Notes under the pieces: generated by a model
The model's input: the letters and a program-made list of their open reading frames with translations, nothing else
What the model was told of the DNA's origin: nothing
Databases searched by the model: none
IMG/VR virus record: IMGVR_UViG_3300017408_000001
Span: 1-43,448 of that record
DNA: 43,448 nucleotides
From: a virus
Reading direction: 5' to 3' (one strand)
Position numbers and translations under genes: made by a program
Part shown: piece by piece, positions 8,860 to 37,053 of the stretch
Layout of the letters: every line of letters starts with the position of its first letter
How positions within the stretch are numbered: position 1 is the first letter of the stretch

Positions 8860-8977
8860 GTTCCAACCCCCTTTCGAGGCAACTTTTTAGTCTGAATTTT
8901 GCTCTCGCAGCGTACGGAGGGCCGTGACCGGTCTAGGGGGCCGGCCATCCCAGACTTTGACCCGGGGGGTAGTCTGT

Positions 8978-9513: not shown

Positions 9514-9531
9514 TTCCAAACTGGAAAGCGT

Positions 9532-9605
9532 TGGAGCGACCAGCCGGGTTCGAACCGGCATCATCAGGGTGGAAGCCTGAGGCCCTACCGTTGGACGATG
9601 GTCGC
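9532..9605 (-). tRNA. tRNA-Gly (anticodon UCC) with encoded CCA
   Basis: The reverse complement folds as a 74-nt cloverleaf. Acceptor GCGACCA/TGGTCGC, D arm GTCC-AACGGTA-GGGC, anticodon arm TCAGG-CTTCCAC-CCTGA, variable TGAT, T arm GCCGG-TTCGAAC-CCGGC, discriminator T, CCA. Confidence 0.9.
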
Positions 9606-9756
9606 TTGAGGGGCCTTGCTTCGCCACGGCGGCCGGGACCGTGTAACAACCGGCGGGGCCGGGAGCGAGTTTCGCCGCATTTTGCGGATCAATTCAGGTC
9701 TTGCAGATTGCAGCACCTGAGTTCCGCGACAGAATGGCGCAAAACCGGTTTGCCAA

Positions 9757-14509: not shown

Positions 14510-15115
14510 ATGTCCGTTTTAAGCGAAGCCATCCCAAGCCGTGTCCGTGCATTGCGTATGGAAAAGGGATGGTCGCTGGCTGAATTAGCAGAGCGGGCAG
14601 GGACGACGGCGTCACAGATCATGAAGCTCGAGAAGTCCCAGCGTCGGCTTGATCTCGCGTGGATAGAGCGCCTTGCTGCCGCTTTTGAGATTTCAGGGGG
14701 CGAGCTGCTTGGCAACGCTCCGCAGTATCCAGTTCACCCCTTTATGATCCCCTTGATCGGAGACATCGCCGCTGGGAACTGGATGGAGGCAGTACAGCAG
14801 AACCCCGAGATGATCTTCTCTCCCGTGGACGACCTCAGCGACAAAGCTTTCGCGCTACGCACGAAGGGCGACAGCATGGACAAGATCATCCCCGATGGCG
14901 GTTACGTAGTGATCGACCCGACGGACGCGGAGTTGCGCGAGGGCAAGGTGTACGCGGTGATGAACTCTGATGGTGAGACAACGATCAAGCGCTTTCGGAG
15001 CGATCCAGCAAGGCTGGAACCATGCTCAAACAATCCAGAGCACCAGCCGATAAGCTTGGGTCGGGAGCAGTTTGTTGTGCTTGGGCAGGCAAAGGGCGCT
15101 TTCGTGCCTCTCTAA
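14510..15115 (+). CDS. cI: CI/LexA-like repressor (XRE HTH + S24 autopeptidase)
   Basis: HTH: IPSRVRALRMEKGWSLAELAERAGTTASQIMKLEKSQR. LexA-type cleavage context: PLIGDIAAGNW. Catalytic motifs GDSM and a downstream Lys (TIKRF). Confidence 0.92.
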   Translation: MSVLSEAIPSRVRALRMEKGWSLAELAERAGTTASQIMKLEKSQRRLDLAWIERLAAAFEISGGELLGNAPQYPVHPFMIPLIGDIAAGNWMEAVQQNPEMIFSPVDDLSDKAFALRTKGDSMDKIIPDGGYVVIDPTDAELREGKVYAVMNSDGETTIKRFRSDPARLEPCSNNPEHQPISLGREQFVVLGQAKGAFVPL

Positions 15116-15170: not shown

Positions 15171-15274
15171 ACCTTAAGGCATCGGAGACGATCGCCGCAT
15201 GGCCGCTGACCCTCCGATCCGCAGGTAAGGGAAAGCGCGCTGTGTGTCCGTAGTATGCTCGGGCCGGCCTCCGC

Positions 15275-15305
15275 CAACCTCCTGCCTCACATTGAGAGGA
15301 GGTTG
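15275..15305 (+). promoter_or_regulatory. 5'-leader hairpin that sequesters the Shine-Dalgarno of the first early-left gene
   Basis: CAACCTCCT (15275-15283) is the exact complement of AGGAGGTTG (15297-15305), giving a 9-bp stem and a 13-nt loop. The ATG lies at 15309. Confidence 0.5.
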
Positions 15306-15308
15306 CCC

Positions 15309-15506
15309 ATGGGCGCCGCAGTCAACATCGCAGCACAAGCTGCCGCCAAAATTCTGAATAGCCTCGAGCCCTGGTACGACTGGGGTCGGACCTTCATAAC
15401 CCGGCTGGACACGAACGACGAAGGCCCCGGCCGGTTTTTCGAGTTGCAGTGGCTCGGCTTGAACGTGACGGTCTTTATCGGCCGCACCCCGAAGCGGGAG
15501 GGCTGA
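15309..15506 (+). CDS. Hypothetical 65-aa protein
   Basis: A GAGGAGG RBS lies 6 nt upstream. First gene of the plus-strand early-left operon. Confidence 0.6.
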   Translation: MGAAVNIAAQAAAKILNSLEPWYDWGRTFITRLDTNDEGPGRFFELQWLGLNVTVFIGRTPKREG

Positions 15507-15508
15507 CC

Positions 15509-16084
15509 ATGGCTCAGCCCATCATCAAGCCCTCGATTGAGTGGCCCACCCCTCAGATCAACGACGGCCATGGCGCCCTTGAAGATGTGTCGTGCCTGAT
15601 CGAGCGGCTTCTGGCCCTGATGAAGCATAACATTGACGAGATGCAGGAGGCGGTCATTAACCGCCCGGTCGCCGACGAGTTTCAGGCCAGTTGGATCAAC
15701 AATGTCTGGATGATTTTCCGGCTTGCTGACGAGAAACTGCAGGAAGTCGACACGATCGTCACGGCGATCGTTGAGGCGGGCCTCGCACCGCGCCGATCAT
15801 CGTTAGTCAGCCATACTCAGCAGTCAAGAAGCCGGGACTGGCGTCTCGCGCTCAATGCGGCGAATGCCGCCAACACGTCTGCCGACATGAGCGACGGTGC
15901 GATTGCTCTCGCCGGACGGCTCTTCGAACAGGCTGTGCGGACGCGCGTGGGATCTCTCGACGACTTCCGCGAAAAGCTCGGACTGCTTGACTCGAACTGC
16001 GGCTTCACCGGGCCGCATCTGGACGAGTTGTTCCGCGACCTCGACGCCCTTGGCGCTCGCGCGAGCCGTGAGTTGGCAGCATGA
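15509..16084 (+). CDS. Hypothetical 191-aa helical protein
   Basis: GGAGGG RBS. The start is 2 nt after the previous stop. Confidence 0.65.
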   Translation: MAQPIIKPSIEWPTPQINDGHGALEDVSCLIERLLALMKHNIDEMQEAVINRPVADEFQASWINNVWMIFRLADEKLQEVDTIVTAIVEAGLAPRRSSLVSHTQQSRSRDWRLALNAANAANTSADMSDGAIALAGRLFEQAVRTRVGSLDDFREKLGLLDSNCGFTGPHLDELFRDLDALGARASRELAA

Positions 16085-16836
16085 GCGCCCCCGCTTCCAT
16101 CGCGGAGGTCCTTGCTTCGATCAACGCTAAGCTGACCTTCCCTTCCCACGACCAAAATCACCCTAGCGACGAGATCATCAGCGCCTGGGAGAAGGTACGC
16201 GGCTGGAGGGATTGGCTCTACCAACAAGACGACATCAAGGGCTGCGGCACCGATGGTTGGACGGCAGAGCGCACCAACCTTCTTGATCGGGAGCAGCAAG
16301 ACCTTGAGCGTTTTGTCACCGGTAATTGGGCAACGACAATCGCCGGGGTGGTTGCCCAGCTATCGCTCGCCATCATCGACATCGATCAAAGCGCTTTGGT
16401 CGAGCGGTGCATCGTGCAGTCAGGACTTCGCGCCGCCTATCTCCAGCGCGACGGCTTGGACGGCGGCACCCAGCAGCTGATCGTAGCAGCCTATGAACTT
16501 CAGTGCATGGACTGGGAGGATGTAGTTGCGGCTTATGAGCGGTCGAAGCCATCTGGGAAGCTGGCGCATGACACGCTCAACGCAATCGACGCGCTGATGC
16601 GTCGGCGTCCGGAATTGGCGGATGATCTTGCTGCGCTGCGAACCTTAGCAAGCGCAAGTGAGCGCGCCACCAGCAATCACGAAACAGTCGACCGACTCAT
16701 GAAGACGTTGGTCGCCGAACCCGACGAGCTGCCGCGCAAGATCCAGATCCTGATCGATGAGGGCATGCTTGATGAGGCCGGGCCATGGCTGCTGCGCGAC
16801 GTCGCTTACCTCAACGCCAGCATAAAGGAGGCATAA
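16081..16836 (+). CDS. Hypothetical 251-aa helical protein
   Basis: ATGA overlap with the previous gene. Confidence 0.65.
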   Translation: MSAPASIAEVLASINAKLTFPSHDQNHPSDEIISAWEKVRGWRDWLYQQDDIKGCGTDGWTAERTNLLDREQQDLERFVTGNWATTIAGVVAQLSLAIIDIDQSALVERCIVQSGLRAAYLQRDGLDGGTQQLIVAAYELQCMDWEDVVAAYERSKPSGKLAHDTLNAIDALMRRRPELADDLAALRTLASASERATSNHETVDRLMKTLVAEPDELPRKIQILIDEGMLDEAGPWLLRDVAYLNASIKEA

Positions 16837-16838
16837 CC

Positions 16839-17777
16839 ATGCGCTTCCATATAACACGCGAGTTCTCGGCTGCACGGTCCGCTCATGCCGCCGCGTACGC
16901 CGCATGGGATGAGATCTCCGACAATCCTGACCCGCAGATTGCCGATCACTCGCCGGAAGCCAAGGCGGCGAGCCAAGCAGAATGCGAAGCGCTTGATGCC
17001 GTACTGTCCTTCGGCGCAACAACGCCGGCAGAGATCCAGGCCAAGCTCGCCTTTATGCGAGAGCGTGAAATCGACTCCTGCGCCACAGGTCACGCCGCTT
17101 GGATGGAGCAGATCGAGCGCGAGCTGATCGAGCTTCAGCGTCCGTGCGTCAGCCCTTCCATGGCACAGGCATTCGACGCATGGCGAGAAGCGTGGACGAC
17201 GTTCATTGAGAGCCCGGACGACGACCATAAGGCGCGGATAAGCGGCGAGACCTTCATCGCGTTGATGGACGCGCCCTGCTTCACTCCTGGCGACTTCATC
17301 ACGAAGGTCTATGTCAACCAGCTTGGCGAACATGGCCATACGCTTGGCGACGAAGACGCTGGCGCATTCCCCTTTGAGCTTGACCAACGACACCTGACTG
17401 GAAGCGGCGGCACGCACGATGATGCCGCGCAAGTTGCCTTGGCTCGGGACATCCGGGAATGTGACCTCGGCCGTTGCATGCTCGCGCTGGGGCGGGTCGA
17501 CTTTGATCCGGCGGATTGGGTTGCCGCCGCTCAGCGTGCGCAGATGGTGGTCTACGTTGCCATCCATCGGGATGGCACTCGATGGCTCTGCACTAGCGAG
17601 CCTGACGGTGACGCCAATGAAGGCCATGGCGATCGTTTTATCACCTGCCAAGCCCTGATAGCTGGCGGCCTTGGCGTAGTCGGTCAAGCCCGTCGTCAGG
17701 CAGTCATCGAACACATAATCGAACACGCACCCACGCTTCTCTTGGATTGCCGTGAGTGCGCGGAGGCAGCGGCATGA
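16839..17777 (+). CDS. Hypothetical 312-aa protein
   Basis: An AAGGAGG RBS precedes ATG 16839, which lies 2 nt after the previous stop. Confidence 0.65.
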   Translation: MRFHITREFSAARSAHAAAYAAWDEISDNPDPQIADHSPEAKAASQAECEALDAVLSFGATTPAEIQAKLAFMREREIDSCATGHAAWMEQIERELIELQRPCVSPSMAQAFDAWREAWTTFIESPDDDHKARISGETFIALMDAPCFTPGDFITKVYVNQLGEHGHTLGDEDAGAFPFELDQRHLTGSGGTHDDAAQVALARDIRECDLGRCMLALGRVDFDPADWVAAAQRAQMVVYVAIHRDGTRWLCTSEPDGDANEGHGDRFITCQALIAGGLGVVGQARRQAVIEHIIEHAPTLLLDCRECAEAAA

Positions 17778-17950
17778 TCGCCCGATGCGCCATGACTATC
17801 CACGCGATCTGCATAGCGTTGCAGATAGGCTTCTGCATCAACAGGCTGCTTCTCCATCCAGGCGACGCTACGCCGATTTGGCTGGGCATGATGCTAGCCC
17901 TGAACGTGGGATGCGCTCTCTCGTCATATCGCATGTTGCGGCAGCCATGA
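17774..17950 (+). CDS. Small hydrophobic protein (58 aa)
   Basis: ATGA overlap with the previous gene. A GGAGG RBS lies 7 nt upstream. There are two hydrophobic stretches: AICIALQIGFCI and IWLGMMLALNVGCAL. Confidence 0.5.
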   Translation: MIARCAMTIHAICIALQIGFCINRLLLHPGDATPIWLGMMLALNVGCALSSYRMLRQP

Positions 17951-18255
17951 CCCAGATAGGCAATTCAGTTCCCGCCAGCACCCACGCGGGAGTGTCGGCA
18001 ACGGCGATCCACGCTCCTCCCGCGCCGCCCCTGTTGGCCGAAGCATGGCTTCTCGCCTGGGGCCGCATAGGCGGCGCTGTCACCATCGGCACGGATGCGC
18101 GGATCTATCCGTGGTTCCGCCCCGGCATCGGCTGCGCTGATGACGACTGCGCCACTGTGCTGATGGCCGAGTTGATCGACACCCCCGGTTTACCGGCCGC
18201 CGTGCGTATCATTGTCGCGGCATCTCTTCATCCTAAGCGAAGGCGAGCAGCATGA
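17947..18255 (+). CDS. Hypothetical 102-aa protein
   Basis: ATGA overlap with the previous gene. The ORF-track frame is trimmed to this coupled ATG. Confidence 0.5.
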   Translation: MTQIGNSVPASTHAGVSATAIHAPPAPPLLAEAWLLAWGRIGGAVTIGTDARIYPWFRPGIGCADDDCATVLMAELIDTPGLPAAVRIIVAASLHPKRRRAA

Positions 18256-18368
18256 GCCCTGACGCCATAGTCCTAAGCCTCTTCGCGATGATCTGGATCG
18301 GATGGCCGCTGCACAACATCGCTCACGATCTGCGGCTCCTGCGTAAGCTGGCGAGGAAAGAACCATGA
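18252..18368 (+). CDS. Micro-ORF, 38-aa hydrophobic peptide (below the ORF-track cutoff)
   Basis: ATGA-coupled at both ends (18252 and 18365). Encodes MSPDAIVLSLFAMIWIGWPLHNIAHDLRLLRKLARKEP. Confidence 0.45.
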   Translation: MSPDAIVLSLFAMIWIGWPLHNIAHDLRLLRKLARKEP

Positions 18369-19345
18369 CTCAGCCTTTAAACTACACGATCAAGGCGATC
18401 GAGGATCTTCGGGCGCTTCGCGACAAGGGCACGTGGTCACCTCACGATCGCATGGGCATCGACTTCATCATCAGCAAGCTGATCAAGGCGGAGGTTTTCG
18501 TGCTGCCCGACTTGGGGCAGCTGCTCGATCGCACGAAGCCCCGGCCCGAGGTCGCAGGCGAAGTCTACCGTCCGCCGCACCCCATCGTAGCGCTCGAGTA
18601 TCAAAGCGCGGTACCCGGCTGGACCCCAACATCGGAGTATGATGCTGCCCCGTCATCGCGGCGCATAGCGCTCGCATGGGACTGGGACGGCGTGTTCCCT
18701 GGCCCCGCATCGGCCAAGGAGCAGCACGACGTAGGCGAAGGCGTCTTTGTCGCGTCCATCTCATACTACGACAATCTCGGCATCTGGGTGCCCACGGGCG
18801 CGGCGCTGATGATGGGCTATGAGGCGGAGTACCGTGTTCCAGATCCTAGCGCCTACCGCGACAGCATGGTCGCCAGCGGCAGGGTCTCGCGAAAGACGGC
18901 GCAGGCGCCGACGCTCGTCATCCGCGACATGATGACGCTGCTGCCCGACAGCATGATGCAGCAGATCAAGAAGACCGGCGAGCAGGCGGCAGTTCAGGCT
19001 TTCGCAGCCGACGTGATGGACGAAGCCAACGCCTATAGCGATCTCTGCCTGGCGCTCGCCTGCAACAACGTCTCGACGACCAGGAACGGCCAGCCGGACC
19101 GGCTGAACCGCGCTCGCATCAAAGCAGGCAAGATCCCGCTGAAGGATTTCCATGTCCTCAAGATTGCGGGCGGTGGCGACGGCGGTGACGCGGGTCAGCC
19201 GCTCGGCAGCGGCGGGGTTCGGTCGCACCTGCGACGCGGGCACGTACGCCGCCTAAGCGCTGACCGCATCACTTGGGTGAACGCCACCATGGTTCGCGGC
19301 TCCCGGCCGGGCTTCGCCGACAAGCTCTATCAGATCAACAGCTAA
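18365..19345 (+). CDS. Hypothetical 326-aa protein
   Basis: ATGA-coupled. The C-terminus has a basic H-x-RRGH-x-RR...W...V motif. No family recognised. Confidence 0.65.
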   Translation: MTQPLNYTIKAIEDLRALRDKGTWSPHDRMGIDFIISKLIKAEVFVLPDLGQLLDRTKPRPEVAGEVYRPPHPIVALEYQSAVPGWTPTSEYDAAPSSRRIALAWDWDGVFPGPASAKEQHDVGEGVFVASISYYDNLGIWVPTGAALMMGYEAEYRVPDPSAYRDSMVASGRVSRKTAQAPTLVIRDMMTLLPDSMMQQIKKTGEQAAVQAFAADVMDEANAYSDLCLALACNNVSTTRNGQPDRLNRARIKAGKIPLKDFHVLKIAGGGDGGDAGQPLGSGGVRSHLRRGHVRRLSADRITWVNATMVRGSRPGFADKLYQINS

Positions 19346-19354
19346 GGACCTGCC

Positions 19355-19612
19355 ATGGATACCATCATCAGTGCGGCGCCGATCGGGGCGCAGACGAAGA
19401 CCTTCAGCGGTAACTATCTCGTCTGGCGCAAGGTCGGGCAGAAGCTGCGCAAGGGCTCTCCCGGAGGAGCATCGGGCAATCCGCGTTTTCGCCACCCGAC
19501 GTTCGAGGCCGCTGAAACCGAGGCGCAACGTCTAGCCAGACTGTTCCCGGCCAGCACGTTCGTCATCTTGCAAGAGGTGGCACGGGTGAAGCTCAGCGAG
19601 GTGGCGACATGA
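19355..19612 (+). CDS. Hypothetical 85-aa protein
   Basis: ORF in the operon, 9 nt after the previous stop. Confidence 0.55.
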   Translation: MDTIISAAPIGAQTKTFSGNYLVWRKVGQKLRKGSPGGASGNPRFRHPTFEAAETEAQRLARLFPASTFVILQEVARVKLSEVAT

Positions 19613-19887
19613 AAGGCAGTGCTCAAGTGACGGACCCTGAGTTTCAGGACATGATCTCGCGCCTTATGGCTGCCGAAAAGGACCTGACTGACGACTTCTG
19701 GGCCGTCGCGTCCGTTCAAGTTCTTGCGGAGACCATGGCCGCAATCAAGGCTCGGCTGACGGATGAAGAGCTTGCCATGCTGATTGGTGTGGGGGCCGTA
19801 TTGATCCGCCTTAGCCGCGACGAGGCAATGGCGGGCGTCCGTGCTGGCCTGGCTATTCAGAGGGCTAAGCATAATGGCGGACGATAA
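19609..19887 (+). CDS. Hypothetical 92-aa protein
   Basis: ATGA overlap with the previous gene. Confidence 0.55.
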   Translation: MKGSAQVTDPEFQDMISRLMAAEKDLTDDFWAVASVQVLAETMAAIKARLTDEELAMLIGVGAVLIRLSRDEAMAGVRAGLAIQRAKHNGGR

Positions 19888-20341
19888 GGCACTAGCCGTC
19901 TTTACGCACGTCGAGGGGCTGTTGCCGCCGCTTCCCGAACTTGCGGATGCGCTGGAGGTGCAATGCGAGAAGGCCGGCGACCTCGGGCCGCAAATCAATC
20001 TGCCAGCGGTGTATGTAAGCATTATGATCCAAGCCTTCCGGCTTGAACGGCTGACGCGCCAGCACGATCAGATGCAAAACGTCATTAACCGGGCGGCTCG
20101 CAAACCTTCTGCACCATTGGTAGACGACCAGGCCATGGCGCTGGCCGTCCACCTTGCCAACGAGGCGATGGCGATGAGCTTTGAGCCTTTGGAAGCTGCT
20201 GGTGCGCTGTGGCACGCGGCCGCCACAATTGCCGTCGCCCACCTCCCTTCGGAGAATGCCCTGAGTGCCTTGGACGGCATGCACGCGATCGTGCGCGCAG
20301 ATGTCGCCGAGGCGATCGGAAAAGGAGCGACAAGGCAATGA
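19874..20341 (+). CDS. Hypothetical 155-aa protein
   Basis: ATG 19874 (MADDKALAVF...) overlaps the previous gene by 14 nt. Confidence 0.55.
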   Translation: MADDKALAVFTHVEGLLPPLPELADALEVQCEKAGDLGPQINLPAVYVSIMIQAFRLERLTRQHDQMQNVINRAARKPSAPLVDDQAMALAVHLANEAMAMSFEPLEAAGALWHAAATIAVAHLPSENALSALDGMHAIVRADVAEAIGKGATRQ

Positions 20342-20526
20342 GCCCGCCTCAACCCACCGGCGAGACCGTGATCTTTTTCCGCGAAAACATGTTCTACCCC
20401 ATCCAGCTTTCTGGTCTCAAGCCCAGCGCGAAGGAGGCGGCCGATCACGCCGCTTACAATCCCGGAACGTTGCGCATCGAGACCTTGGCCGGCGAAGTGC
20501 TCTGGCCAGAGGGAACCAAGCAATGA
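20338..20526 (+). CDS. Hypothetical 62-aa protein
   Basis: ATGA overlap. An AAAGGAG RBS lies upstream. Confidence 0.5.
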   Translation: MSPPQPTGETVIFFRENMFYPIQLSGLKPSAKEAADHAAYNPGTLRIETLAGEVLWPEGTKQ

Positions 20527-20822
20527 AGCGCCGTCACACCTGTCGCACCTGCGACCACTTCCGGCCAGGGGCGTCATCAAACATGAGCTGGCCCGCGCCG
20601 ATCGAAAGCGATGATGAACTGGGCGTCTGCGAGTACACCCAGCCGGAGCCGGCGCAGCTACCTATCGGAGGGCCATCCACAATCGGGCTGCAGCCGGTAG
20701 TTCACGAAAGCCGCTCGTGCGCGGAATACATGCCGCATGCCGATTACGATGGTGACGACGATGGCGGTGGCGAAACGGTCACAGCGTCCAACGGGAAGTC
20801 TATTCTCAAGGCCGTGGCATGA
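20523..20822 (+). CDS. Hypothetical 99-aa Cys-containing protein with acidic tail
   Basis: ATGA overlap. A CRTC pair plus two further Cys suggest a zinc ribbon. The C-terminus is DYDGDDDGGGE. Confidence 0.5.
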   Translation: MKRRHTCRTCDHFRPGASSNMSWPAPIESDDELGVCEYTQPEPAQLPIGGPSTIGLQPVVHESRSCAEYMPHADYDGDDDGGGETVTASNGKSILKAVA

Positions 20823-21037
20823 CCGGAGCGGCACAGCGCGACCGTCGGCGCGACAATCTCGTGCGCCTATCTGATGTGAAGGCCCGTACCGGCCTGTCAC
20901 GTTCAACCATCTACCGGCGCATGGGCGCTGGCACTTTCCCTGTGTCGCAGCCGCTCAGCACCGGCATGGTCGCTTGGTACGAGAGCGACATTGATGCGTG
21001 GGTTGCTGACCCTATGGGGTGGAGGGCGACGGCATGA
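20819..21037 (+). CDS. AlpA-family HTH regulator / excisionase candidate
   Basis: LVRLSDVKARTGLSRSTIYRRMGAGTFPVSQPLSTGMVAWYESDIDAWV matches the Phage_AlpA/HTH_17 pattern. It lies near int. Confidence 0.8.
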   Translation: MTGAAQRDRRRDNLVRLSDVKARTGLSRSTIYRRMGAGTFPVSQPLSTGMVAWYESDIDAWVADPMGWRATA

Positions 21038-21300: not shown

Positions 21301-21572
21301 GCGACCAGCCGACCAACCGGGATGAGGACTACCAGGATCAACTCGACCATCGGGCGCAACTACTGGCTAATCTAGCGGGTGAGCTAGTGGACGATCCCGA
21401 TGAGACATTAGGCTTACTTGCTCAGGCCCAGATGCTTGCCGCCATGGAGCACTTAACCCTGAAACAGTGGGCAGACGTTCAGCTTGAGACGGCCGAGAAC
21501 ATGTACGCGTCTATTCAAGCACGCCTGCTGGATGGAGAAGATGATAACTACAAGCCTCAGTTCCGTCGTTGA
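21297..21572 (+). CDS. Hypothetical acidic 91-aa protein
   Basis: ATGA overlap. Its 3' end overlaps the convergent int 3' end by 16 nt. Confidence 0.5.
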   Translation: MSDQPTNRDEDYQDQLDHRAQLLANLAGELVDDPDETLGLLAQAQMLAAMEHLTLKQWADVQLETAENMYASIQARLLDGEDDNYKPQFRR

Positions 21573-22858
21573 CCGTCCATCAGCGCGGCGGCGGGGGCCA
21601 TGTCCTTTATCAGCAGATCGGCCCATTCCTGCGATAGCTCGCGCCGCCGCTCCATGTGGCCGGCGCGATCGTAGGCGGCCTTGACCTTGTTCTCCGGCAC
21701 GTGAGCCAGCATCAGCTCGATCACGGCCGGGTCGCTCAAGCTCTTCCGCTTGACCGCCAGGCTGTTCATCGTCGTCGAGAAGCTGGATCGCCAGCCGTGC
21801 GGCACATGGCGCCCGAAGAACCCGACCCGGTTGTAGAGGTAGCCGATCGCGTTCTCGCTGATCGGCCGGTGGCTGTGGCGCTGACCGGGGAATACCAGCC
21901 GCCCACGCCCAGTGAGCCGGTACACGGCGCGCAGAACTTCGACGGCCTGCCAGCATAGTGGCACCTGATGCTCGAAATGTTCTTCGTCCTTCAGATCCAA
22001 GACCAGCTTCATGCGCTGCGCCGGGATTGTCCACGTAGGCAGGAAAGGGCCGAATGCGGTATCTTCCCAGTCGATGCCCTCGAACTCCGACCATTCGGCA
22101 CCGCGCACCATGCCTGGGCGCGACTGCGTGAGAGCGAGGAACCGCGAGGCCAGTTTGGTTACAGGTGAAGCGCCTGAAGCCTCGGCGGCGATCAGTACCT
22201 CGCGGGCCGCGTTCGGATCGGTAATTGCCGGCTGCTTGCCCTTCTTCGGCAACGGCTTGAGAGCCTTGCCGACGGCGGCGGCCGGGTCGACCGCCACGAT
22301 GCCTTCCGAGATCGCGTAGGAATAGACGGATGATATGCGCTGGCGCAGCCGCTTGGCCGTTTCGATGGAGCCCCTGTCCTCAACGGCGCGCAGAGCCTTC
22401 AGGACTAGCGGCGCATCGATTGTCACCAGCGGCTTCGCGCCCAGCGCCGGGAAGACGTCACGCTGCAGGCTGGTGATCACGTCGTCAGCATGGACCGGCG
22501 CCCAGCGCGGAGCCTGGAGCGCGAACCACGTGCGAGCGGCCTGCTCGAAGGTGACGAGCTTGGCCTGCTCGGCCTTCTCCTGCTCCTTGGCGTCCTGGGC
22601 GCGCTTGCGCGCACCTGACGGGTCTTCGTGGTTTCGGATCTTGCGCCTGGCCTCGTCGCGCCGCTCGCGCGCCTCGCTCAGCTTCACGTCGGGGTACGGC
22701 CCGAATGTCAGCAGCTTCTCCTTGCCGTGGAGCCGGAACTTCATGCGCCAGGACTTGAGACCCGTCGTTGCGACATACAGGTAGAGGCCGCCAGCGTCGG
22801 CCATCTTGTACGGCTTCTCGCGAGCGGCAGCGCCCTTCACTTCCTTGTCTGTCAGCAC
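21557..22858 (-). CDS. int: Tyrosine integrase, P4-like (DUF4102 N-terminal arm-binding domain)
   Basis: N-terminus LTDKEVKGAAAREKPYKMADAGGLYLYVATTGLKSWRMKFRLHGKEKLLTFGPYPDVKLSEARERRDEAR. The C-terminal catalytic region has HGWRSSFST and LAHV...Y. GTG start. Confidence 0.95.
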   Translation of the reverse strand: MLTDKEVKGAAAREKPYKMADAGGLYLYVATTGLKSWRMKFRLHGKEKLLTFGPYPDVKLSEARERRDEARRKIRNHEDPSGARKRAQDAKEQEKAEQAKLVTFEQAARTWFALQAPRWAPVHADDVITSLQRDVFPALGAKPLVTIDAPLVLKALRAVEDRGSIETAKRLRQRISSVYSYAISEGIVAVDPAAAVGKALKPLPKKGKQPAITDPNAAREVLIAAEASGASPVTKLASRFLALTQSRPGMVRGAEWSEFEGIDWEDTAFGPFLPTWTIPAQRMKLVLDLKDEEHFEHQVPLCWQAVEVLRAVYRLTGRGRLVFPGQRHSHRPISENAIGYLYNRVGFFGRHVPHGWRSSFSTTMNSLAVKRKSLSDPAVIELMLAHVPENKVKAAYDRAGHMERRRELSQEWADLLIKDMAPAAALMDGQRRN

Positions 22859-23115
22859 GATACCCCGACCTCCAATTCCAGTACCCCGCCTTGTGCCACC
22901 AATACCCCCAAGCTGGGGCGGAACAAAGCGAGACGCCTTGGAACTCGGCCTTATCGGAGAAATGGCGGAAAAGCTACCCTCTCGGGACAGTTTGGCATTG
23001 GTTGGAGAGCAGTCTTGGCGGAGCGGGAGCCCATCACAAGGTTAGCGATAATCCGCAGAACTCCGCCATTCGTCCGGCTGTGATCCAGAGTGATACCCCG
23101 ACCGATACCCCGACC
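22859..23115. other. Candidate attP region with arm-type repeats
   Basis: GATACCCCGACC occurs at 22859-22870, 23092-23103 and 23104-23115. Degenerate copies are AGTACCCCGCC (22880) and AATACCCCCAA (22901). The three left-arm TACCCC cores are spaced exactly 21 bp apart, and all copies share one orientation. Confidence 0.55.
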
Positions 23116-23485
23116 CAAAATGAGACGCGGCAGGAAGCTCTGGTTCGTCTGCGACATCGGGATCCAAACTCACGCGCATAACCAGGCCGAGCGTCGCATC
23201 TGGCAGGTGCGATCCTTTCACCCTCTCGACTATCGCCCGCACGTCATAGCCGCGATCCATCTTGCTGCCGATCCAGACGGCGCGGTCCCGGCGCAGGTAG
23301 CCGACGCGGACACCACGGCAGCTGAACACGGCCACCGCCATGCGATCGTGCGGGTTCTCGGGCTCCCGCACCAGATGCACCTGCTCGCCCGGCGCGCATA
23401 GCGCCAGCTCGGCCTGACGGCTGGTGCCGTCCTCGTTGTCAAACCACTCGCCGACCGCCGGCAAGCTGAAGTCGTTCCAACCCAT
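23042..23485 (-). CDS. Stand-alone HIRAN-domain protein
   Basis: GEQVHLVREPENPHDRMAVAVFSCRGVRVGYLRRDRAVWIGSKMDRGYDVRAIV matches the HIRAN pattern (...L.REP.NP.D..A..V....G..IGY...). The low-complexity C-terminal tail (GSGYRSGYHSGS) is encoded by the att-arm repeats. Confidence 0.7.
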   Translation of the reverse strand: MGWNDFSLPAVGEWFDNEDGTSRQAELALCAPGEQVHLVREPENPHDRMAVAVFSCRGVRVGYLRRDRAVWIGSKMDRGYDVRAIVERVKGSHLPDATLGLVMRVSLDPDVADEPELPAASHFGSGYRSGYHSGSQPDEWRSSADYR

Positions 23486-23502
23486 GCGCGTCTACTCTAT
23501 GA

Positions 23503-23527
23503 GAACATAAGTGGAACATGCTAGAAC
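23503..23527. promoter_or_regulatory. Putative LexA (SOS) box, alphaproteobacterial type
   Basis: GAAC-ATAAGTG-GAAC (23503-23517) matches GAAC-N7-GAAC exactly. A third GAAC lies at 23524-23527 after 6 nt. It is centred in the 75-bp divergent intergenic region. Confidence 0.5.
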
Positions 23528-23560
23528 GAAGTCAGTCGAGTCGCATAGAGGGATTTGCAC

Positions 23561-23953
23561 ATGGAAAATGCTTCGAAGCTGGACGAGTTGAGAGCCGAAG
23601 TGGCCAGGATCGAAAGCGAGCCGGGGTTTGACTTCGCGGCCTCGGTGCCGTCGCAGCGCCCTGCCCCCACGCCCGCTCCTGCGCCACTGCCGGACGAGCT
23701 ACCGCCTGTGGTCGGCCAGTTCGATGATGTCGCCGAGGTCGACGGCGCTCGCCAGCCGTTCGGCGCGTGGCTGCTCGAGCAGGGCCAGCGCAAAGGCTGG
23801 ATCGCCGACCTGGCCAAGTGGGCGAAGTCCGATCGGGGCTTCCCCAAGAACGGCAGCGTCGAGGATGTGCGCAAGCGACTTACGGCGGTCTATGCTGAGG
23901 GCGACGCGTACGAGGCGCTGGAAGATGCTGAGCTGGACTGGGCAGCGCTATGA
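23561..23953 (+). CDS. Protein with Pro-rich linker and C-terminal YozE-like SAM-like domain
   Basis: A GAGGGA RBS lies 7 nt before ATG 23561. The C-terminus FGAWLLEQGQRKGWIADLAKWAKSDRGFPKNGSVEDVRKRL...AYEALEDAELDW resembles the YozE_SAM_like pattern (F..WL...I..LA....D..FP....). Confidence 0.5.
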   Translation: MENASKLDELRAEVARIESEPGFDFAASVPSQRPAPTPAPAPLPDELPPVVGQFDDVAEVDGARQPFGAWLLEQGQRKGWIADLAKWAKSDRGFPKNGSVEDVRKRLTAVYAEGDAYEALEDAELDWAAL

Positions 23954-24273
23954 GCCCGACCGCCATCGTTGAGGGATCGGACGTCCGCGCCAAGGTACAG
24001 CAGCTGGCCAACGGGCGGCACGTGAGCCTCGCAAGCCTGTCGCGTCTGGTGGGCAAGAATGCCAGCTACCTGCAGCAGTTCGTGACGCGGGGTTCGCCGA
24101 AGCAGTTGGGCGAAGACGAGCGTCTGGTGCTGGCGCAGTTCTTCGGGATCGATGAGCGCGAACTTGGCGCGCGGGAGCCGTGGCACCCGGCGCAGGGCGC
24201 CAGCACTTGTAGACGCGAGGCTGCGGACAGGCGCATGACGGTTGAGGCGAGTCGGCCTGATCGCGGAGCGTGA
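23950..24273 (+). CDS. HTH-type putative transcriptional regulator (107 aa)
   Basis: ATGA overlap with the previous gene. SLASLSRLVGKNASYLQQFVTRGSPKQLGEDERLVLAQFFGIDEREL resembles XRE/phage-repressor HTH proteins. Confidence 0.5.
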   Translation: MSPTAIVEGSDVRAKVQQLANGRHVSLASLSRLVGKNASYLQQFVTRGSPKQLGEDERLVLAQFFGIDERELGAREPWHPAQGASTCRREAADRRMTVEASRPDRGA

Positions 24274-24275
24274 CG

Positions 24276-24476
24276 ATGACAAGCACTGAACTGGCGGATT
24301 GGAAGTATGCGAGCGAGTTCATGGCGCAATTCGGTGACGATGCGCCAGACGAGCTTCTTCGGCAGCTCAAGCATCTTAACGAGGTGGGCGACCATGAGGG
24401 TGGCCGCCGCCTGATCAAGCTGGTCGACCTGATCCAGGCACTTACGCCGGGTCCAGAGGATGGCGCGGCGAACTAG
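24276..24476 (+). CDS. Hypothetical acidic 66-aa protein
   Basis: GGAG lies 6-7 nt before ATG 24276. An in-frame GTG at 24270 overlaps the previous stop. Confidence 0.45.
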   Translation: MTSTELADWKYASEFMAQFGDDAPDELLRQLKHLNEVGDHEGGRRLIKLVDLIQALTPGPEDGAAN

Positions 24477-24487
24477 CACCAATGAAA

Positions 24488-24519
24488 AAGGGCGCCCTGG
24501 CCGAAGCCGGGACGCCCTT
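24488..24519 (-). terminator. Rho-independent terminator between convergent genes
   Basis: AAGGGCGCCC...GGGACGCCCTT forms a 7+3-bp stem with a one-base bulge. On the minus strand it is followed by TTTTTCATT, so it is oriented for the dam transcript. It probably also stops the plus-strand operon. Confidence 0.7.
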
Positions 24520-24551
24520 CTGCGTACATGGGGGAATGCACGGGCGGGCGC

Positions 24552-25481
24552 TTACCCGTTCGTGACGATCAGTTCACCCGCCCGCTTGCCTTTACCCACG
24601 GTCGCGGTCGCCAGCGTGTAGGTGGTCTGCACCTCGTCGAACGCAAACCGTCCGAACACGTCTCGCGCGCCGGCTGTGTCGTTGATCGACAGAATGAACC
24701 GGCCCGCGATCCCGGCCAGCTGCTCGGCCAGCCGTTCGAAGTCGGCCCGCTCGAACCCGCTGTCGCCATAGTCCGTCTCGCAGTCCCAGTAGGGCGGATC
24801 GAGATAGAACAGGACGTCGGGCCCATCATAGCGTCGGATCAGATCGCTGTAGTTCAGCTGTTCGATCACGACGCCAGCAAGCCGATCGTGGATCTCGGCC
24901 AGCAGCGGCTCCAGCTTGCTCACGTCGAACCGGCCGGGAGTGCGCCGATCGACACCGAAGTTGCGCCCGTTCACCTTGCCGCCGAACGCCAGGCGCTGGA
25001 GGTAGAGGAACCGGGCCGCGCGCTCCAAGTCGGTCAGCGTGCCAGCGTCGACCTTCACCAGCCGCGCGAACTCGGCCCGACTGGTGATCTGCCAACGCAG
25101 CACATCCATGAACTGCGGATAGTGCCGCTGCAGGATGCGGAACAGGTTGGCCACGTCGCCCGACAGGTCGTTGATGACCTCGGCACGTGGCCGGCTGGTG
25201 CGGCGCAGGAACACGCCGCCCATGCCCACGAACGGCTCGACGTAAGTGTTGTGCGGGATGGTGGCAATCTGGGCGACGAGGCGCTGCGCCAGGTTGCGCT
25301 TGCCGCCGACGTAAGGCGCGGCCGGCGAGGCCGGGCGCACAGGCGTAAGGTCCCCTGGAATTCCAAGGCACCCTTCCGAAACGGGAATACCCGTTTCGGC
25401 TTGCGGGAAGTCAACGGGGATTGCCGTAGACGTCTGCTGGTCCCTGCTGATCTGCAGGGACCGATCTTCGATAGACTCCAT
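24552..25481 (-). CDS. dam: Orphan DNA adenine methyltransferase, Dam/D12 class
   Basis: Motifs PYVGGKRNLAQRL (motif X/I region), FVEPFVGMGGVF (AdoMet site) and FYLDPPYW (DPPY catalytic motif). There is a 55-aa N-terminal extension, and an internal GTG start is possible. No adjacent restriction gene was recognised. Confidence 0.9.
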   Translation of the reverse strand: MESIEDRSLQISRDQQTSTAIPVDFPQAETGIPVSEGCLGIPGDLTPVRPASPAAPYVGGKRNLAQRLVAQIATIPHNTYVEPFVGMGGVFLRRTSRPRAEVINDLSGDVANLFRILQRHYPQFMDVLRWQITSRAEFARLVKVDAGTLTDLERAARFLYLQRLAFGGKVNGRNFGVDRRTPGRFDVSKLEPLLAEIHDRLAGVVIEQLNYSDLIRRYDGPDVLFYLDPPYWDCETDYGDSGFERADFERLAEQLAGIAGRFILSINDTAGARDVFGRFAFDEVQTTYTLATATVGKGKRAGELIVTNG

Positions 25482-25859
25482 GATGTGTGGTGCTCATACA
25501 AGCCCCGCCCTGTCAGGGCAGCGGGGCGTTAGCGGCTAGGCCAGCCGCGCGTGACGAGGAGGTGCCCACCACTCGTCGGTTGCCGTGTTAGCGCACGGCA
25601 CCCCCGCTCCGGCCTAAATACGGGATTTGCCCGTAATTAGATGCCAGGCGGACGTGTCTCTTAAGGCGTGGATCCGAACTACCGGGAAATATGCGGTAGT
25701 TGCCTAAAAAATGGCGGTTTTCTGCGGCTTTGACCGTGGATCCGAAGGTGGTGAGTCCGCAGGCCCGAAATGGCAGTGAGCAGCACCCGAAAGCCGCAGA
25801 TTTCTGCGGTTTATAGGGGGTGATCCGACCTGGAGCGCACAACCCCCTTTTCAGGTCTA
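25482..25859. other. 378-bp hairpin-rich non-coding spacer (candidate sRNA/leader/terminator cluster)
   Basis: Stem-loops lie at 25502-25527, 25553-25577, 25581-25600, 25619-25635, 25677-25701, 25794-25809 and 25815-25848 (the last is followed by TTTT on plus). An 11-nt inverted repeat pairs TCTGCGGCTTT (25721) with AAAGCCGCAGA (25790). A 12-nt direct repeat CGTGGATCCGAA lies at 25667 and 25735. No ORF with an RBS is present. Confidence 0.6.
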
Positions 25860-29781: not shown

Positions 29782-30354
29782 TCAGGCGCCCAGAATGATC
29801 TTGGTAAGCAGCGGAAGCACATCGACGCGCTTGGGGCCGATTGGCCGGTAGGACGGCCTGGCCACGCCGCTGTAGACCAGGGCCCGCAGATCGGCCGGCC
29901 ACTTGCCGTCGAAGAACATGGCGCGCTCGATCTTGGCGCGCTCCAGTGCGTTGCCCCGGTCGGTCCAATTCATGAAGCTGGCGCGGCTCTTGTCGCGCTT
30001 GCCGGCGCACCAGTGCTCGACCCAATCGGCAGTTCCAATCGCGCCAAAGTGCCATTGAAACGACAGAGCGGCGGCGAGCTGGATCTCGGTTAGGTCATGT
30101 TCGGCGAAGGCGCGGTGGACGGCCGGGTAGTACTGCTTGCGCATGAGGTCGACGGTCGCGCGCAGGCACGTTTCCAGTGACTGCGGCTTGTCCTTGTACT
30201 GCAGCACGTCGAAACCCGACTTTGTTGAGATCCCGCCCGCCCAGGTCCACACCGGCGGCTTGGCATTGTCCTTGTACGCCTCGAGCACGATGCCCTCGAC
30301 GCTGCAGCAGTACGCGGCAATGCGCGGCGTTAACGCCGTGACGATGATGTCCAT
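29782..30354 (-). CDS. Putative endolysin (lysozyme-like)
   Basis: AAGG lies 7 nt before ATG 30354. SVEGIVLEAYKDNAKPPVWTWAGGIST resembles the E-x8-D-x5-T catalytic arrangement of GH24-type lysozymes. It lies directly after two membrane-protein genes. Confidence 0.6.
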   Translation of the reverse strand: MDIIVTALTPRIAAYCCSVEGIVLEAYKDNAKPPVWTWAGGISTKSGFDVLQYKDKPQSLETCLRATVDLMRKQYYPAVHRAFAEHDLTEIQLAAALSFQWHFGAIGTADWVEHWCAGKRDKSRASFMNWTDRGNALERAKIERAMFFDGKWPADLRALVYSGVARPSYRPIGPKRVDVLPLLTKIILGA

Positions 30355-30400
30355 CAATCTACCTTTCGGGGAGAGCGCGGCGCGATGCCTGCGCGGGGAC

Positions 30401-34161: not shown

Positions 34162-37053
34162 TCATCTGCCGAATGCCAGCCAGTCGAAGCCGTCGAGGTG
34201 CTGGGAATTGCTCGTGGCGGCCTGTGTCCCGACGGTCGCGCCGAACTTGGTTTTCGCGCCTACGACCTGAAGCCAAAGGTCGCGGTTGTTGTTGAAGACG
34301 GTCAGGTAGGGCACCGGAACGAAGCTCTGGCACTCGTTCGGAAACGGATCATCAAACACGACGGAGAGCTGCACTTCGTCGTTGATGGCGCCGCGAAACT
34401 TGCCCCACTTCATCACGACGCCGCCGGGTAGCTCCTGCGAGCCTTGGTCGGCCGACATGTCCTGCTTGAGCAGGAACTCGTAATCCATGGCGCCGACCTT
34501 GAGGGTGTCGACCTCGACGTCGTGCATCTTCACGACGCCGTCCTCGACCGCGAATACGGGCTGGCCGCCGTTCCCATCTGCGTCGAAGATGCGGAAGTAG
34601 TCGGCGACGAAGTCGAAGCCGCCTTCCACCCCGTCATTGTTGGCAAGGAAGCCGATCACGTGGCCGTTGCTGTCCAGCTTCACGCCGTAGCGCAGCAGCA
34701 CGCCGTCGATCGACTCGGCCAGCACCGCGAGTTCCGCGGTCTGGCCGTTGAAGGAGGTCTCCAGCGACAGCAGCTGCGTTGCCAGCGCACCGTCTTCATC
34801 GGCGCGCGCGATCTCTTCCGCGAGCACCATCGCGCTGACGTCCGCGATGTCGCTGGCGAGCGTGGCGGCCAGGGCCTGCCGAGCGGTCGCTTCCGCTTCG
34901 TCACCGCTCACCCGTGCCGACGCCTCGTTCAGGACGGCTGCATCTACATCAGCGATGTCGCTGCTCAGGGACGCGGAGAGTGCCTCGCGCAGCGCAGCCT
35001 CGGCGCTGACCGCATCGGCGCGCGTCGTCGCTTCGGTGGCGATTGCGGCCTCAAGGTCCGACACATGCCCGTCGACCACGCCCTGCAGAGCCGAGAGCCC
35101 CAGGTTGCGCTGCGCAGTCTCGGCTAGATCGGCCTCCGCGCGCGTGGTCGCCTCGCTGCTGATCGCCGCTTGCGTGGTAAGCAGCTTGCCGTCGACTTCG
35201 GTCCGCAGCGTGGAGATGGCGAGTTCGCGCTGCGAAGTTTCGGCACTGTCCGCGTCGGCGCGCGTCGTCGCTTCACTGCTGATCGCCGCCTGCAAGTCCG
35301 ACACATGGCCATCGACTTCGGTATGGAACAGCGAGATGGCGAGTTCGCGCGACATGGTCTCGGCGGCATCAGCCGAAGCGCGCACTGTCTGCTCAAGCTC
35401 AATAGCCGCCATGGCCGCATTGATGCCGTCGGTCGCGGCCGCTTCGATCTCGGTGATGAGCTGGACGAACGCCTCACCTTGCTCGACCCGCTCGTTGATC
35501 TCCTGCCGTACCCGGGTCGTAACCTCGATGCCGTCGAGGTGGAGCAGGCGCTCCCACCGGGCTTTACGCTCCTCGCCGAGCAGCTGAGCCGCGTAGGAGG
35601 CCAGCAGATTATTGCGGTGCTGGTCGACCAGCGACTGCACGCCTTCGACGATGTCGGCCGCCGAGGTGGTGGAGCCCAGCTTCTTGAGGGCTTCAATGAC
35701 GTTGTCGGCGGTGCCTTCGCCGACCGGCGTGCCTGGGGGAGCACCAACGGTCGCATTGTCCTCCGGCTTGGTGCCGTCCGGGTCCGCGATGTCGGGCCAG
35801 TTCACGATGGTGCCTATCGGCTCCACCTTGCCCGCGGTGCTCAGCCCCTCGACGGAGAGCGTCAAGTTGCTGACGGACTGCCCGACTTCAATCGAGAAGT
35901 CCTTGAAGAAGCCGTACACCGCAAGCGCATCCAGTGCGTCATCAGCAATCCACAGCGCCGGCCGTGCGCGGACTGCGGCGATCCGGCCGGCGACGATGTC
36001 GATCGCGTCGGTATCGATCAGCGCCTTCGCACTCATCCGCTTCGACCAGGCACGCTTGACGATCGTCACCTCGCCGAAGTCGTCGACCTCCTTGCGGCTG
36101 AAGTCGGTGATGCCGGCGCTCGGCGCGGCTTCCGTGAGACCAAGCCCGATGAGCTTGCCGATCATCAGCGTGCCGATAGACACTTGCCCCGTGCCCACGA
36201 TTGTCACGACGGCAGAGTCGGTGGTCGCCGGCAGATCGAGGAACAGCGCAGAGCCGCCCTCGCCGGGCGCGATGGTGCGGTCGTAGTAGCTGCCGATCCG
36301 CACCCGCACGGTGTCAGCTGTCACATCGAGCAGCGCGATCGCGTTGATCTCGCCGTTCTGCACCTCGACCTCAACGGGCCCGGCGGCGGTTGTTGCGGAG
36401 CCGAGAGCTTCGTCGAACATGGCCCAGCGGTTCGTTGGGCCGATGTCGGTCCACATGCCCGAAGCGCCAGTAGGATCACTGCCCTGGCTTGGCGCAGCGC
36501 TCTCATAGATCCGGTGCGTCGCCTGCTTGATCACGCGCGCGCCGAGCGGATAAGCCGTCCCTGCGGCCCACTCGGGATAGTCGTCTTCGACCACGGTGCT
36601 GGCGATCAGCGCCGGGCCTTGGATCGAGGCGGGCTGCAGCAGCCGCAGGGTCGACACGCCGCCTTCAGGCGCTGGGTCGGTGCCCGGATCGTTGAAGGGC
36701 TCCGATGCGGCGAGACCCTCGATCGTCAGAGTGCAATAGCTCACTGGCGGCAAAGCCAGATCAACCGAGAAGTCCTTGTAGAACCCCCGGAAGTCGAGCC
36801 AGGCGAACCGGTCGTCCGCAACCCACCGCGCCGCGGTGGCGCGCAGATCAGCAACCCGCCGCTGGAGTTCGTCGACGCCGTCGGTGGGCACGAGCAGCTT
36901 GACCGACATGCGCCGTGCAAAGGCGCGCGGCACGACCTTGGTGACACCGAAATCATCGGTGACACGCCGGCTGTAGTCGGTCAGCCCGATCGTCGGGGTT
37001 TCTTCAAGCGTGCCGAGCTGGAACTCGGCGCCGCCGTCCAAGACAACCTTCAA
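34162..37053 (-). CDS. Large tail fibre / host-specificity protein (963 aa)
   Basis: The TTG start overlaps the tape-measure stop. Parts, in order:
- a duplicated about 105-aa N-terminal domain (aa 11-116 and 291-406);
- a CBM5/12-like W..G..Y..G..V......Y...........P......W segment;
- 40-aa coiled repeats (AE..QR.L..S.L...VDG.....QAAISSEATTRA.AD);
- a C-terminal globular domain. Confidence 0.8.
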   Translation of the reverse strand: MKVVLDGGAEFQLGTLEETPTIGLTDYSRRVTDDFGVTKVVPRAFARRMSVKLLVPTDGVDELQRRVADLRATAARWVADDRFAWLDFRGFYKDFSVDLALPPVSYCTLTIEGLAASEPFNDPGTDPAPEGGVSTLRLLQPASIQGPALIASTVVEDDYPEWAAGTAYPLGARVIKQATHRIYESAAPSQGSDPTGASGMWTDIGPTNRWAMFDEALGSATTAAGPVEVEVQNGEINAIALLDVTADTVRVRIGSYYDRTIAPGEGGSALFLDLPATTDSAVVTIVGTGQVSIGTLMIGKLIGLGLTEAAPSAGITDFSRKEVDDFGEVTIVKRAWSKRMSAKALIDTDAIDIVAGRIAAVRARPALWIADDALDALAVYGFFKDFSIEVGQSVSNLTLSVEGLSTAGKVEPIGTIVNWPDIADPDGTKPEDNATVGAPPGTPVGEGTADNVIEALKKLGSTTSAADIVEGVQSLVDQHRNNLLASYAAQLLGEERKARWERLLHLDGIEVTTRVRQEINERVEQGEAFVQLITEIEAAATDGINAAMAAIELEQTVRASADAAETMSRELAISLFHTEVDGHVSDLQAAISSEATTRADADSAETSQRELAISTLRTEVDGKLLTTQAAISSEATTRAEADLAETAQRNLGLSALQGVVDGHVSDLEAAIATEATTRADAVSAEAALREALSASLSSDIADVDAAVLNEASARVSGDEAEATARQALAATLASDIADVSAMVLAEEIARADEDGALATQLLSLETSFNGQTAELAVLAESIDGVLLRYGVKLDSNGHVIGFLANNDGVEGGFDFVADYFRIFDADGNGGQPVFAVEDGVVKMHDVEVDTLKVGAMDYEFLLKQDMSADQGSQELPGGVVMKWGKFRGAINDEVQLSVVFDDPFPNECQSFVPVPYLTVFNNNRDLWLQVVGAKTKFGATVGTQAATSNSQHLDGFDWLAFGR
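35005..35364. repeat. Three tandem 120-nt repeats (with degenerate copies down to about 34780) inside the fibre gene
   Basis: Units start (minus strand) at 35364, 35244 and 35124. They encode the 40-aa repeats beginning at A564, A604 and A644. Confidence 0.8.

Follow-up and report, generated by a model that had tools for sequence, protein, structure and literature searches.

The locus described here raises two questions: whether five genes that lie together beside the attachment site (attP) of a temperate phage form one system, and in which process such genes would act. The DNA is IMG/VR virus record IMGVR_UViG_3300017408_000001, positions 1 to 43,448 of which were analyzed as one stretch (hereafter the window); it is almost the whole of a 43.4-kb metagenomic contig, has a G+C content of 63%, and represents a temperate phage with a sphingomonad-type genome. 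The five genes encode a stand-alone HIRAN protein, three small proteins read divergently from it (open reading frames ORF2, ORF3, and ORF4), and a Dam-like DNA methylase, and an earlier note made from the sequence had grouped all five as a candidate module for DNA damage or for anti-restriction or defence. All five are real genes at the coordinates given below, and an independent gene caller predicts the same five, of 147, 130, 107, 66, and 309 amino acids (aa), on an identical contig from another sample. We find that a conserved LexA box separates the HIRAN gene from ORF2, and we lean towards the view that these genes are a LexA-repressed, DNA-damage-inducible accessory cassette at the prophage end that would act on DNA 3' ends or stalled forks.

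A conserved LexA box between the HIRAN gene and ORF2

The HIRAN gene (23042–23485, minus strand) and ORF2 (23561–23953, plus strand) diverge from a common region of 75 bp (23486–23560), which is kept in two relatives (loci L002 and L004; loci are referred to by number) and in which the promoter elements of both units probably lie. This region contains the sequence GAACATAAGTGGAAC at 23503–23517 (plus strand), 17 nucleotides (nt) from the ATG of the HIRAN gene and 43 nt from that of ORF2, and its motif is that of the published alphaproteobacterial LexA site, a direct repeat of the form GTTC-N7-GTTC (PMC3323433, PMC12700426). The window contains two exact copies of GAAC-N7-GAAC where chance would give 1.18, a count that is not significant on its own, and the extended form GAACA.A....GAACA occurs once, at this box.

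Comparison with sphingomonad prophages yielded 35 distinct orthologous boxes upstream of HIRAN and/or ORF2 homologs, with the consensus tGAGAACAtAnnnnGAACAT. Across these boxes the spacer varies but the two GAAC half-sites are kept, as are the A/T positions next to them, and the consensus is followed by a conserved TA that is compatible with a −10 element. The box was found upstream of the ORF2 homolog in 17 of the 19 loci of one comparison set and 25–36 nt upstream of the HIRAN gene in eight of ten viral HIRAN loci at 57% identity or more. More distant phage HIRAN loci served as a control: of 70, only 4 carry a box at 250 nt or less, and across all DNA fetched the boxes average 0.12 per kb, those of the module itself counted in. 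By these alignments the box is the best-conserved feature of the locus, and control of both the HIRAN and the ORF2 units by LexA is very likely. The divergent region, its box of the LexA type, and the connection with DNA damage, all proposed in the earlier note, thus hold up, the box being conserved in relatives. Two other identities for the box were considered and rejected. It is not an operator of the phage repressor CI, as the cI/cro intergenic region has different repeats and the box persists on other phage backbones, and it is not an autoregulatory site of ORF3, as it is present in many loci that have no ORF3. No relevant LexA boxes of the Escherichia coli type (CTG-N10-CAG) were found upstream of the distant HIRAN genes, and a scan of promoters and terminators found nothing, its models being of the E. 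coli type and uninformative for this host group.

A LexA-repressed cassette of this kind would work as follows. The two divergent units beside attP, the HIRAN gene reading outward to attR and the ORF2-led operon, would use a single LexA operator, and in a lysogen host LexA bound to the box, in or next to both core promoters, would silence both. DNA damage would activate RecA and thereby bring about self-cleavage of LexA and of the S24-type CI of the phage, so that the cassette would be expressed with, or just before, prophage induction. The HIRAN protein might then protect or remodel 3' ends, whether those of damaged forks or those of intermediates in phage replication, and the ORF2 operon might contribute small partner or regulatory proteins. 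In support of this scheme, a related phage (L004) carries as cargo an SOS-response-associated peptidase (SRAP), another SOS-associated DNA-damage protein, together with an OLD-family nuclease.

The HIRAN protein and the ORF2-led operon

The HIRAN protein matches Pfam model PF08797 with 49 bits (E value 5.5e-13) against a cutoff of 24.7, which confirms the domain assignment of the earlier note, and matches phrog_27141 in PHROGs at 2.5e-27. Its conserved core comprises about 117 of the 147 aa, and the tail beyond residue ~117 is not conserved among homologs. The family profile matches structures of the HIRAN domain of HLTF, with ENPHD aligned to NNPYD of HLTF, and residues N44 and D47 are invariant among 13 diverse homologs, so that the NPxD motif for 3'-end binding appears to be retained. 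Work by Kile et al. and by Hishiki et al., both from 2015, is said to have established the role of the Asp of this motif of HLTF in binding the 3'-OH end. With the NPxD pocket retained, the most likely targets of the protein are the 3' ends of phage DNA in replication or those at forks that have stalled or broken. HLTF and Rad5 have the same Pfam domain; in contrast to them, the protein of the window is a stand-alone domain of ~117 aa that lacks both the SNF2 motor and the RING domain, has a His in place of the stacking Tyr, and appears to be a phage gene under SOS control.

A DNA-end-binding protein at a prophage end could also serve in defence, the HIRAN protein sensing the DNA ends of invading or replicating phages in an SOS-triggered system of defence, superinfection exclusion, abortive infection, or anti-defence. 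In modules with HipA-type kinases, the sensing of DNA ends has been proposed as the role of HIRAN (PMC8262856, PMC11706625), the PADLOC candidate PDC-M03B is matched in its HIRAN portion by the protein of the window (E value 2.5e-7), and both the position at the prophage end, which is typical of defence cargo, and the toxin–antitoxin genes that neighbor the cassette in relatives fit such a role. However, PDC-M03B is matched at profile positions 142–230 only. The HipN (HipS-HIRAN) antitoxins and PDC-M03 are likewise bacterial HIRAN proteins on mobile or defence-associated DNA, whereas the window has no HipS-like domain and no HipA-family kinase among the neighboring genes. No kinase, nuclease, NTPase, or toxin effector was recognized among the five genes with Pfam, PHROGs, PADLOC, and NCBIfam, and no complete known system was detected, PADLOC giving domain-level matches only (HIRAN to PDC-M03B, and generic methylase models). 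In addition, LexA repression would hold the genes off at the entry of a new phage; it implies that they are needed when the lysogen suffers DNA damage and not at the onset of a fresh infection, which weakens the anti-restriction and the defence readings alike. We therefore regard a defence function as improbable, and the role in defence or anti-restriction suggested by the earlier note is not supported.

ORF2 comprises an N-terminal helix, a proline-rich linker, and a C-terminal YozE/SAM-like domain of four helices; in the predicted structure the four-helix domain is confident and the linker disordered. The protein itself scores 19.3 bits against the Pfam model YozE_SAM_like (PF06855), under the cutoff of 25; the model is matched by 24 of 28 ORF2 family members at E values below 0.01 (best 2.9e-6), and the best two matches of the predicted fold in PDB are UPF0346/YozE structures (2kvs and 2o6k), with weak E values and template modeling (TM) scores of 0.47–0.61. 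The earlier assignment as YozE-like is probable from the family and the fold, and ORF2 on its own falls below the Pfam cutoff. The small Firmicute proteins YozE/UPF0346 appear to have the same small helical fold as the C-terminal ~65 aa of ORF2, a Pfam match at the level of the family; ORF2 differs from them in its added N-terminal helix and proline-rich linker, in its residence in an alphaproteobacterial prophage, and in its association with a LexA box. To our knowledge YozE itself has no known function, so that the match explains little. A profile search with ORF2 collected 749 cluster representatives, mostly 70–160 aa long. A fold search of BFVD returned nothing annotated, and no cultured phage in INPHARED carries ORF2, which is present there only in unannotated metagenomic records named "Bacteriophage sp." Sphingomonad Mu-like transposable phages have a homolog of 79 aa that consists of the YozE-like domain only and has a LexA box (L008, 9007–9300; L009, 9953–10240), and this gene directly adjoins the gene of an S24 repressor at the prophage end.

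ORF3 (23950–24273, plus strand; 107 aa, conserved at residues ~10–80) encodes a helix-turn-helix (HTH) protein of the XRE/Cro-C1 type according to its AlphaFold model, which has the five-helix fold of this class and which Foldseek matches with a probability of 1.00 and TM scores of 0.75–0.81 to the N-terminal domain of CapH, C.AhdI, SinR, and P22 c2. The fold thus bears out the earlier prediction of an HTH protein. ORF3 has no match in Pfam, its comparison with the HTH of CI by hhalign is not significant, and a profile search of PDB sequences gave noise only, so that it took a comparison of folds to recognize the HTH; within the family, which comprises 635 proteins mostly of ~80 aa, the Pfam model HTH_31 from the HTH clan is weakly matched by 10 of 45 members. 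In the close relative L138, ORF3 ends at 81 aa and is followed by a spacer of 113 nt and then ORF4, which indicates that the last ~26 aa of the 107-aa protein in the window are read-through and that the tight spacing to ORF4 is incidental. ORF4 (24276–24476, plus strand) encodes an acidic protein of 66 aa with an isoelectric point of 4.5 and is an ORFan: it has two homologs, at 85–86% identity, among 5.8 billion proteins, no family match in Pfam, PHROGs, PADLOC, or NCBIfam, and no homology to a 78-aa gene of the relatives. Of the ATGA-coupled three-gene operon described earlier, the ATGA overlap is confirmed between ORF2 and ORF3; ORF3 and ORF4 are 2 nt apart (or overlap by GTGA).

Control of small phage proteins by a LexA box is a hallmark of antirepressors (PMC4551915; bioRxiv 10.1101/2025.11.27.690993), and ORF2 and/or ORF3 could accordingly govern induction as a LexA-regulated antirepressor or switch that inactivates the phage repressor after DNA damage, in the manner of Tum (phage 186) or Sar (SPbeta-like phages). 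The Cro/CI-like HTH fold of ORF3 would agree with this role, as would the short ORF2 homologs of Mu-like phages, which directly adjoin the repressor gene. Yet the CI repressor of the window (14510–15115; HTH plus Peptidase_S24 domain) and the repressors of the ORF2-carrying Mu-like phages have their own S24 self-cleavage domain, so that no antirepressor would be needed. CI and ORF2 show no sign of covariation: where CI is 79% identical, the phage carries only a short version of ORF2, 56% identical, and for a phage with an 83%-identical ORF2 no close CI homolog was detected. No PHROG antirepressor family was matched either. A repressor that cannot cleave itself and a specific pairing with that repressor, both expected of an antirepressor, are not found here, which makes this role quite unlikely. 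With Tum, Sar, and the LexA-dependent promoters of GIL01, too, a host SOS box in the promoter couples small non-virion phage genes to DNA damage; their proteins have no sequence or fold relation to the HIRAN, YozE-like, and XRE HTH proteins of the cassette, and in further contrast the phage of the window has a self-cleaving CI and the box is an alphaproteobacterial direct repeat. Prophage genes under a host SOS box are of a well-known kind, and it is the gene content and the link to HIRAN that are new.

Assortment of the cassette genes among related prophages

The divergent arrangement of the HIRAN gene, box, and ORF2 is present in ~18 non-redundant loci in which the identity of the HIRAN protein ranges from 91% down to 45% (L015 at 45%). 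In L004 the HIRAN protein is 87% and ORF2 72% identical to those of the window and the integrase only 28%; the pair alongside an unrelated integrase indicates that the HIRAN gene and ORF2 move as a unit between phage backbones. Each gene is also found alone. Four loci (L029, L033, L034, and L055) have the HIRAN gene without ORF2, among which L029 has the order Dam, box, HIRAN with no ORF2 operon, and ~20 loci, including those of the Mu-like phages L008–L010, have ORF2 homologs with the box and no HIRAN gene. ORF3 homologs follow ORF2 in a subset only (L011, L030, L031, L037–39, L051, and L061). In Sphingomonas leidyi (L055; CP170557, 5992–6781), the junction of prophage and chromosome has the order chromosome, box, ORF3 homolog, HIRAN, box, and an unrelated gene of 146 aa, and its two boxes, GTTCTATCAATGTTC and GAACATAGCGCGAAC, serve one each for the ORF3-family HTH gene and the HIRAN gene.

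Other genes take the places of ORF3 and ORF4 in the relatives. A family of 74–83 aa proteins (58–92% identical), absent from the window, pairs with ORF2 homologs in either order: it replaces ORF3/ORF4 downstream of ORF2 in L002 (10393–10629), L004 (9712–9936), and L005 (1944–2180), and it lies upstream of ORF2 at loci that have no HIRAN gene in L013 (7709–7960), L016 (1324–1575), L019 (208–459), and L020 (7560–7811). The swapped order suggests that this family may be a functional partner of ORF2, and the pairing makes up another conserved partnership besides that with HIRAN. The same position is occupied in other relatives by PanA/SocA_Panacea toxin–antitoxin pairs and by a fusion of an HTH with Peptidase_M78; these and the SRAP and OLD-family nuclease genes are the accessory genes noted around the cassette in L004 (18484–19700), L002 (10911–11766), L051 (1594–2476), and L005 (3079–4158).

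As judged from this distribution, the five genes are not one system, and the HIRAN gene and ORF2 pair often but not obligatorily. The single five-gene module of the earlier note is contradicted by the independent assortment of its components: ORF3 occurs in a minority of loci, ORF4 has its two homologs, and the Dam gene is boxless and widespread. The co-occurrence in related prophages that the earlier note put forward as a test was recovered for HIRAN and ORF2, which recur together, and the HTH gene accompanies them in some relatives only. Another reading would take all these genes as independent morons at a cargo hotspot on the attP side, the HIRAN gene and the ORF2 operon sharing nothing except the LexA-controlled intergenic region. 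The solitary occurrences of each gene, the varied genes after ORF2 (ORF3, the 74–83 aa family, PanA toxin–antitoxin, HTH-M78 peptidase), and the ORFan status of ORF4 all fit. It does not account for a divergent layout that persists alongside unrelated integrases and as HIRAN identity falls from 91% to 45%, nor for the HIRAN gene and ORF3 homolog of L055, adjacent in another order and each with its own LexA box, and common regulation is itself a functional link. We consider independent morons somewhat unlikely, with an appreciable chance nonetheless.

Several points weigh against the damage-inducible cassette that we favor. The HIRAN gene and ORF2 each occur alone, so that a joint function is not required, and because the position is a general cargo hotspot, a shared neighborhood is weak evidence of shared function. 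The case for LexA control consists of the motif and its conservation, and the box was judged by the published alphaproteobacterial motif. Furthermore, we know of no demonstrated activity in bacteria or phages of a HIRAN domain that has neither motor nor nuclease.

The prophage end, the phage, and the meaning of the cassette

The position of the cassette follows from the attachment site, whose core lies at 23016–23029 on the minus strand; its reverse complement, CTCCCGCTCCGCCA, is the 3' end of tRNA-Ser(GGA). The site was mapped by aligning the window with the junction in L002, a 261-kb contig in which the integrase gene lies directly downstream of tRNA-Ser(GGA). The two are identical over 14 nt, with homology continuing on the int side and breaking off on the HIRAN side, the pattern expected of attL compared with attP, and this maps attP and confirms the prophage geometry. 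The tyrosine integrase of the window (21557–22858, minus strand; 433 aa) matches the Pfam models Arm-DNA-bind_3 and Phage_int_M and, weakly, Phage_integrase, and is 90% identical to the L002 integrase that adjoins tRNA-Ser(GGA). All three exact copies of the repeat GATACCCCGACC in the window flank the attP core, one in the int-proximal arm (22859–22870, plus strand) and two in tandem (23092–23115, plus strand) within the codons of the non-conserved C-terminal tail of the HIRAN protein; the attL arm of L002 holds related GGGGTA(T/C) motifs, and the integrase probably binds these arm-type repeats. The stop codon of the HIRAN gene is 12 nt from the core, and as the core lies between int and the HIRAN gene, the latter becomes the terminal gene at the prophage end opposite int after integration, which is the placement that the earlier note had predicted. 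In agreement with a terminal position, many prophage-derived viral contigs terminate 2–90 bp past the 3' end of the HIRAN gene. In L002 the int-attP cassette is inverted relative to the window, so that int and the HIRAN gene are at the same prophage end there, and the gene between them (8552–9511) matches the NCBIfam entry "LAPAL motif-containing putative phage structural protein" (E value 4.4e-51).

The Dam gene (24552–25481, minus strand) encodes a D12-class (Dam-like) N6-adenine DNA methyltransferase of 309 aa that matches PF02086 (MethyltransfD12) with 79 bits against a cutoff of 22, as well as phrog_56 and the PADLOC models MTase_II/oMTase. Its score against the subfamily model TIGR00571 is 82 bits, under the cutoff of 115, and specificity for GATC does not follow from this match. 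No restriction endonuclease was recognized beside it, the neighbors being ORF4 and a 170-aa protein without match in Pfam, PHROGs, PADLOC, or NCBIfam; a type II restriction-modification system was therefore rejected for want of a cognate nuclease among these neighbors, an unrecognized nuclease being a remote possibility, and the orphan status assigned to the methylase by the earlier note is sustained. The gene has no LexA box upstream, is syntenic in five of nine close relatives, and is ~70% identical at the nucleotide level to methylases from numerous phages, alphaproteobacterial and otherwise, including the D12-class orphan Dam-like methylases that Rhizobium, Sinorhizobium, Ochrobactrum, and P2-like phages carry at the end of the late region, from which it shows no notable difference. 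It is a separate, presumably constitutive, and common phage orphan methylase, an ordinary member of its kind outside the HIRAN–ORF2 unit. Across the whole window GANTC, the CcrM/HinfI-type site, occurs 23 times compared with ~146 expected from base composition, and GATC is not avoided (426 observed, 376 expected). Between the convergent ORF4 and Dam genes lies a G+C-rich hairpin (24488–24519) with a 13-bp stem in the predicted fold; it might possibly be a bidirectional terminator, with a whole-segment z-score of −0.98, which is not significant, and no hit in the terminator scan. The 378-bp gap between Dam and the 170-aa gene (25482–25859) contains no convincing ORF, Rfam match, or LexA box.

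The phage as a whole is a temperate, siphovirus-like sphingomonad phage that integrates into tRNA-Ser(GGA). Its late genes are on the minus strand and include those for the large terminase (6618–8432), endolysin (29782–30357), a tail-fibre-like protein (34162–37053), and the tape measure protein (37050–42113), and the window also has an early operon with cro/DnaB and an excisionase-like gene (20819–21037). The sole Rfam match of the window is a tRNA-Gly(TCC) at 9532–9605 (minus strand) within an ORF of 152 aa (9169–9627) that looks HNH-like by eye. On the strand of the repressor, a block of genes without any Pfam match extends ~6 kb downstream of cI (15255–20822, plus strand); lysogens may express it.

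Phages and bacteria commonly encode stand-alone HIRAN proteins, and we know of none with an established role. In INPHARED the HIRAN genes of cultured phages are all distant ones with hypothetical annotations, and no paper in the literature library searched connects a HIRAN protein of bacteria with LexA or with SOS. A prediction made in 2006 reportedly held that HIRAN recognizes damaged DNA, and a LexA operator before a phage HIRAN gene fits with it. The SOS regulation of the cassette is well supported by the comparisons of its boxes, and its biochemical role would be the one outlined for 3' ends. The finding reveals no new defence system; it does define, in sphingomonads, a family of YozE-like prophage genes with SOS boxes, along with an integration site (attP/tRNA-Ser) and a cargo hotspot at which toxin–antitoxin and further accessory genes are exchanged. 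It is unlikely, though conceivable, that the HIRAN protein and ORF2, with small partners that can replace one another (an XRE HTH protein in some loci, a member of the 74–83 aa family in others), constitute an undescribed SOS-induced system for capping or remodeling 3' ends. If so, such capping or remodeling would rescue the replication of damaged prophages or shield phage DNA from host nucleases, and the cassette would provide the first regulatory and functional link of a bacterial or phage stand-alone HIRAN protein to the DNA-damage response. The conserved LexA operator before a phage HIRAN gene in any case offers a hypothesis that is inexpensive to test, namely that the HIRAN protein is produced solely upon DNA damage or induction of the prophage.

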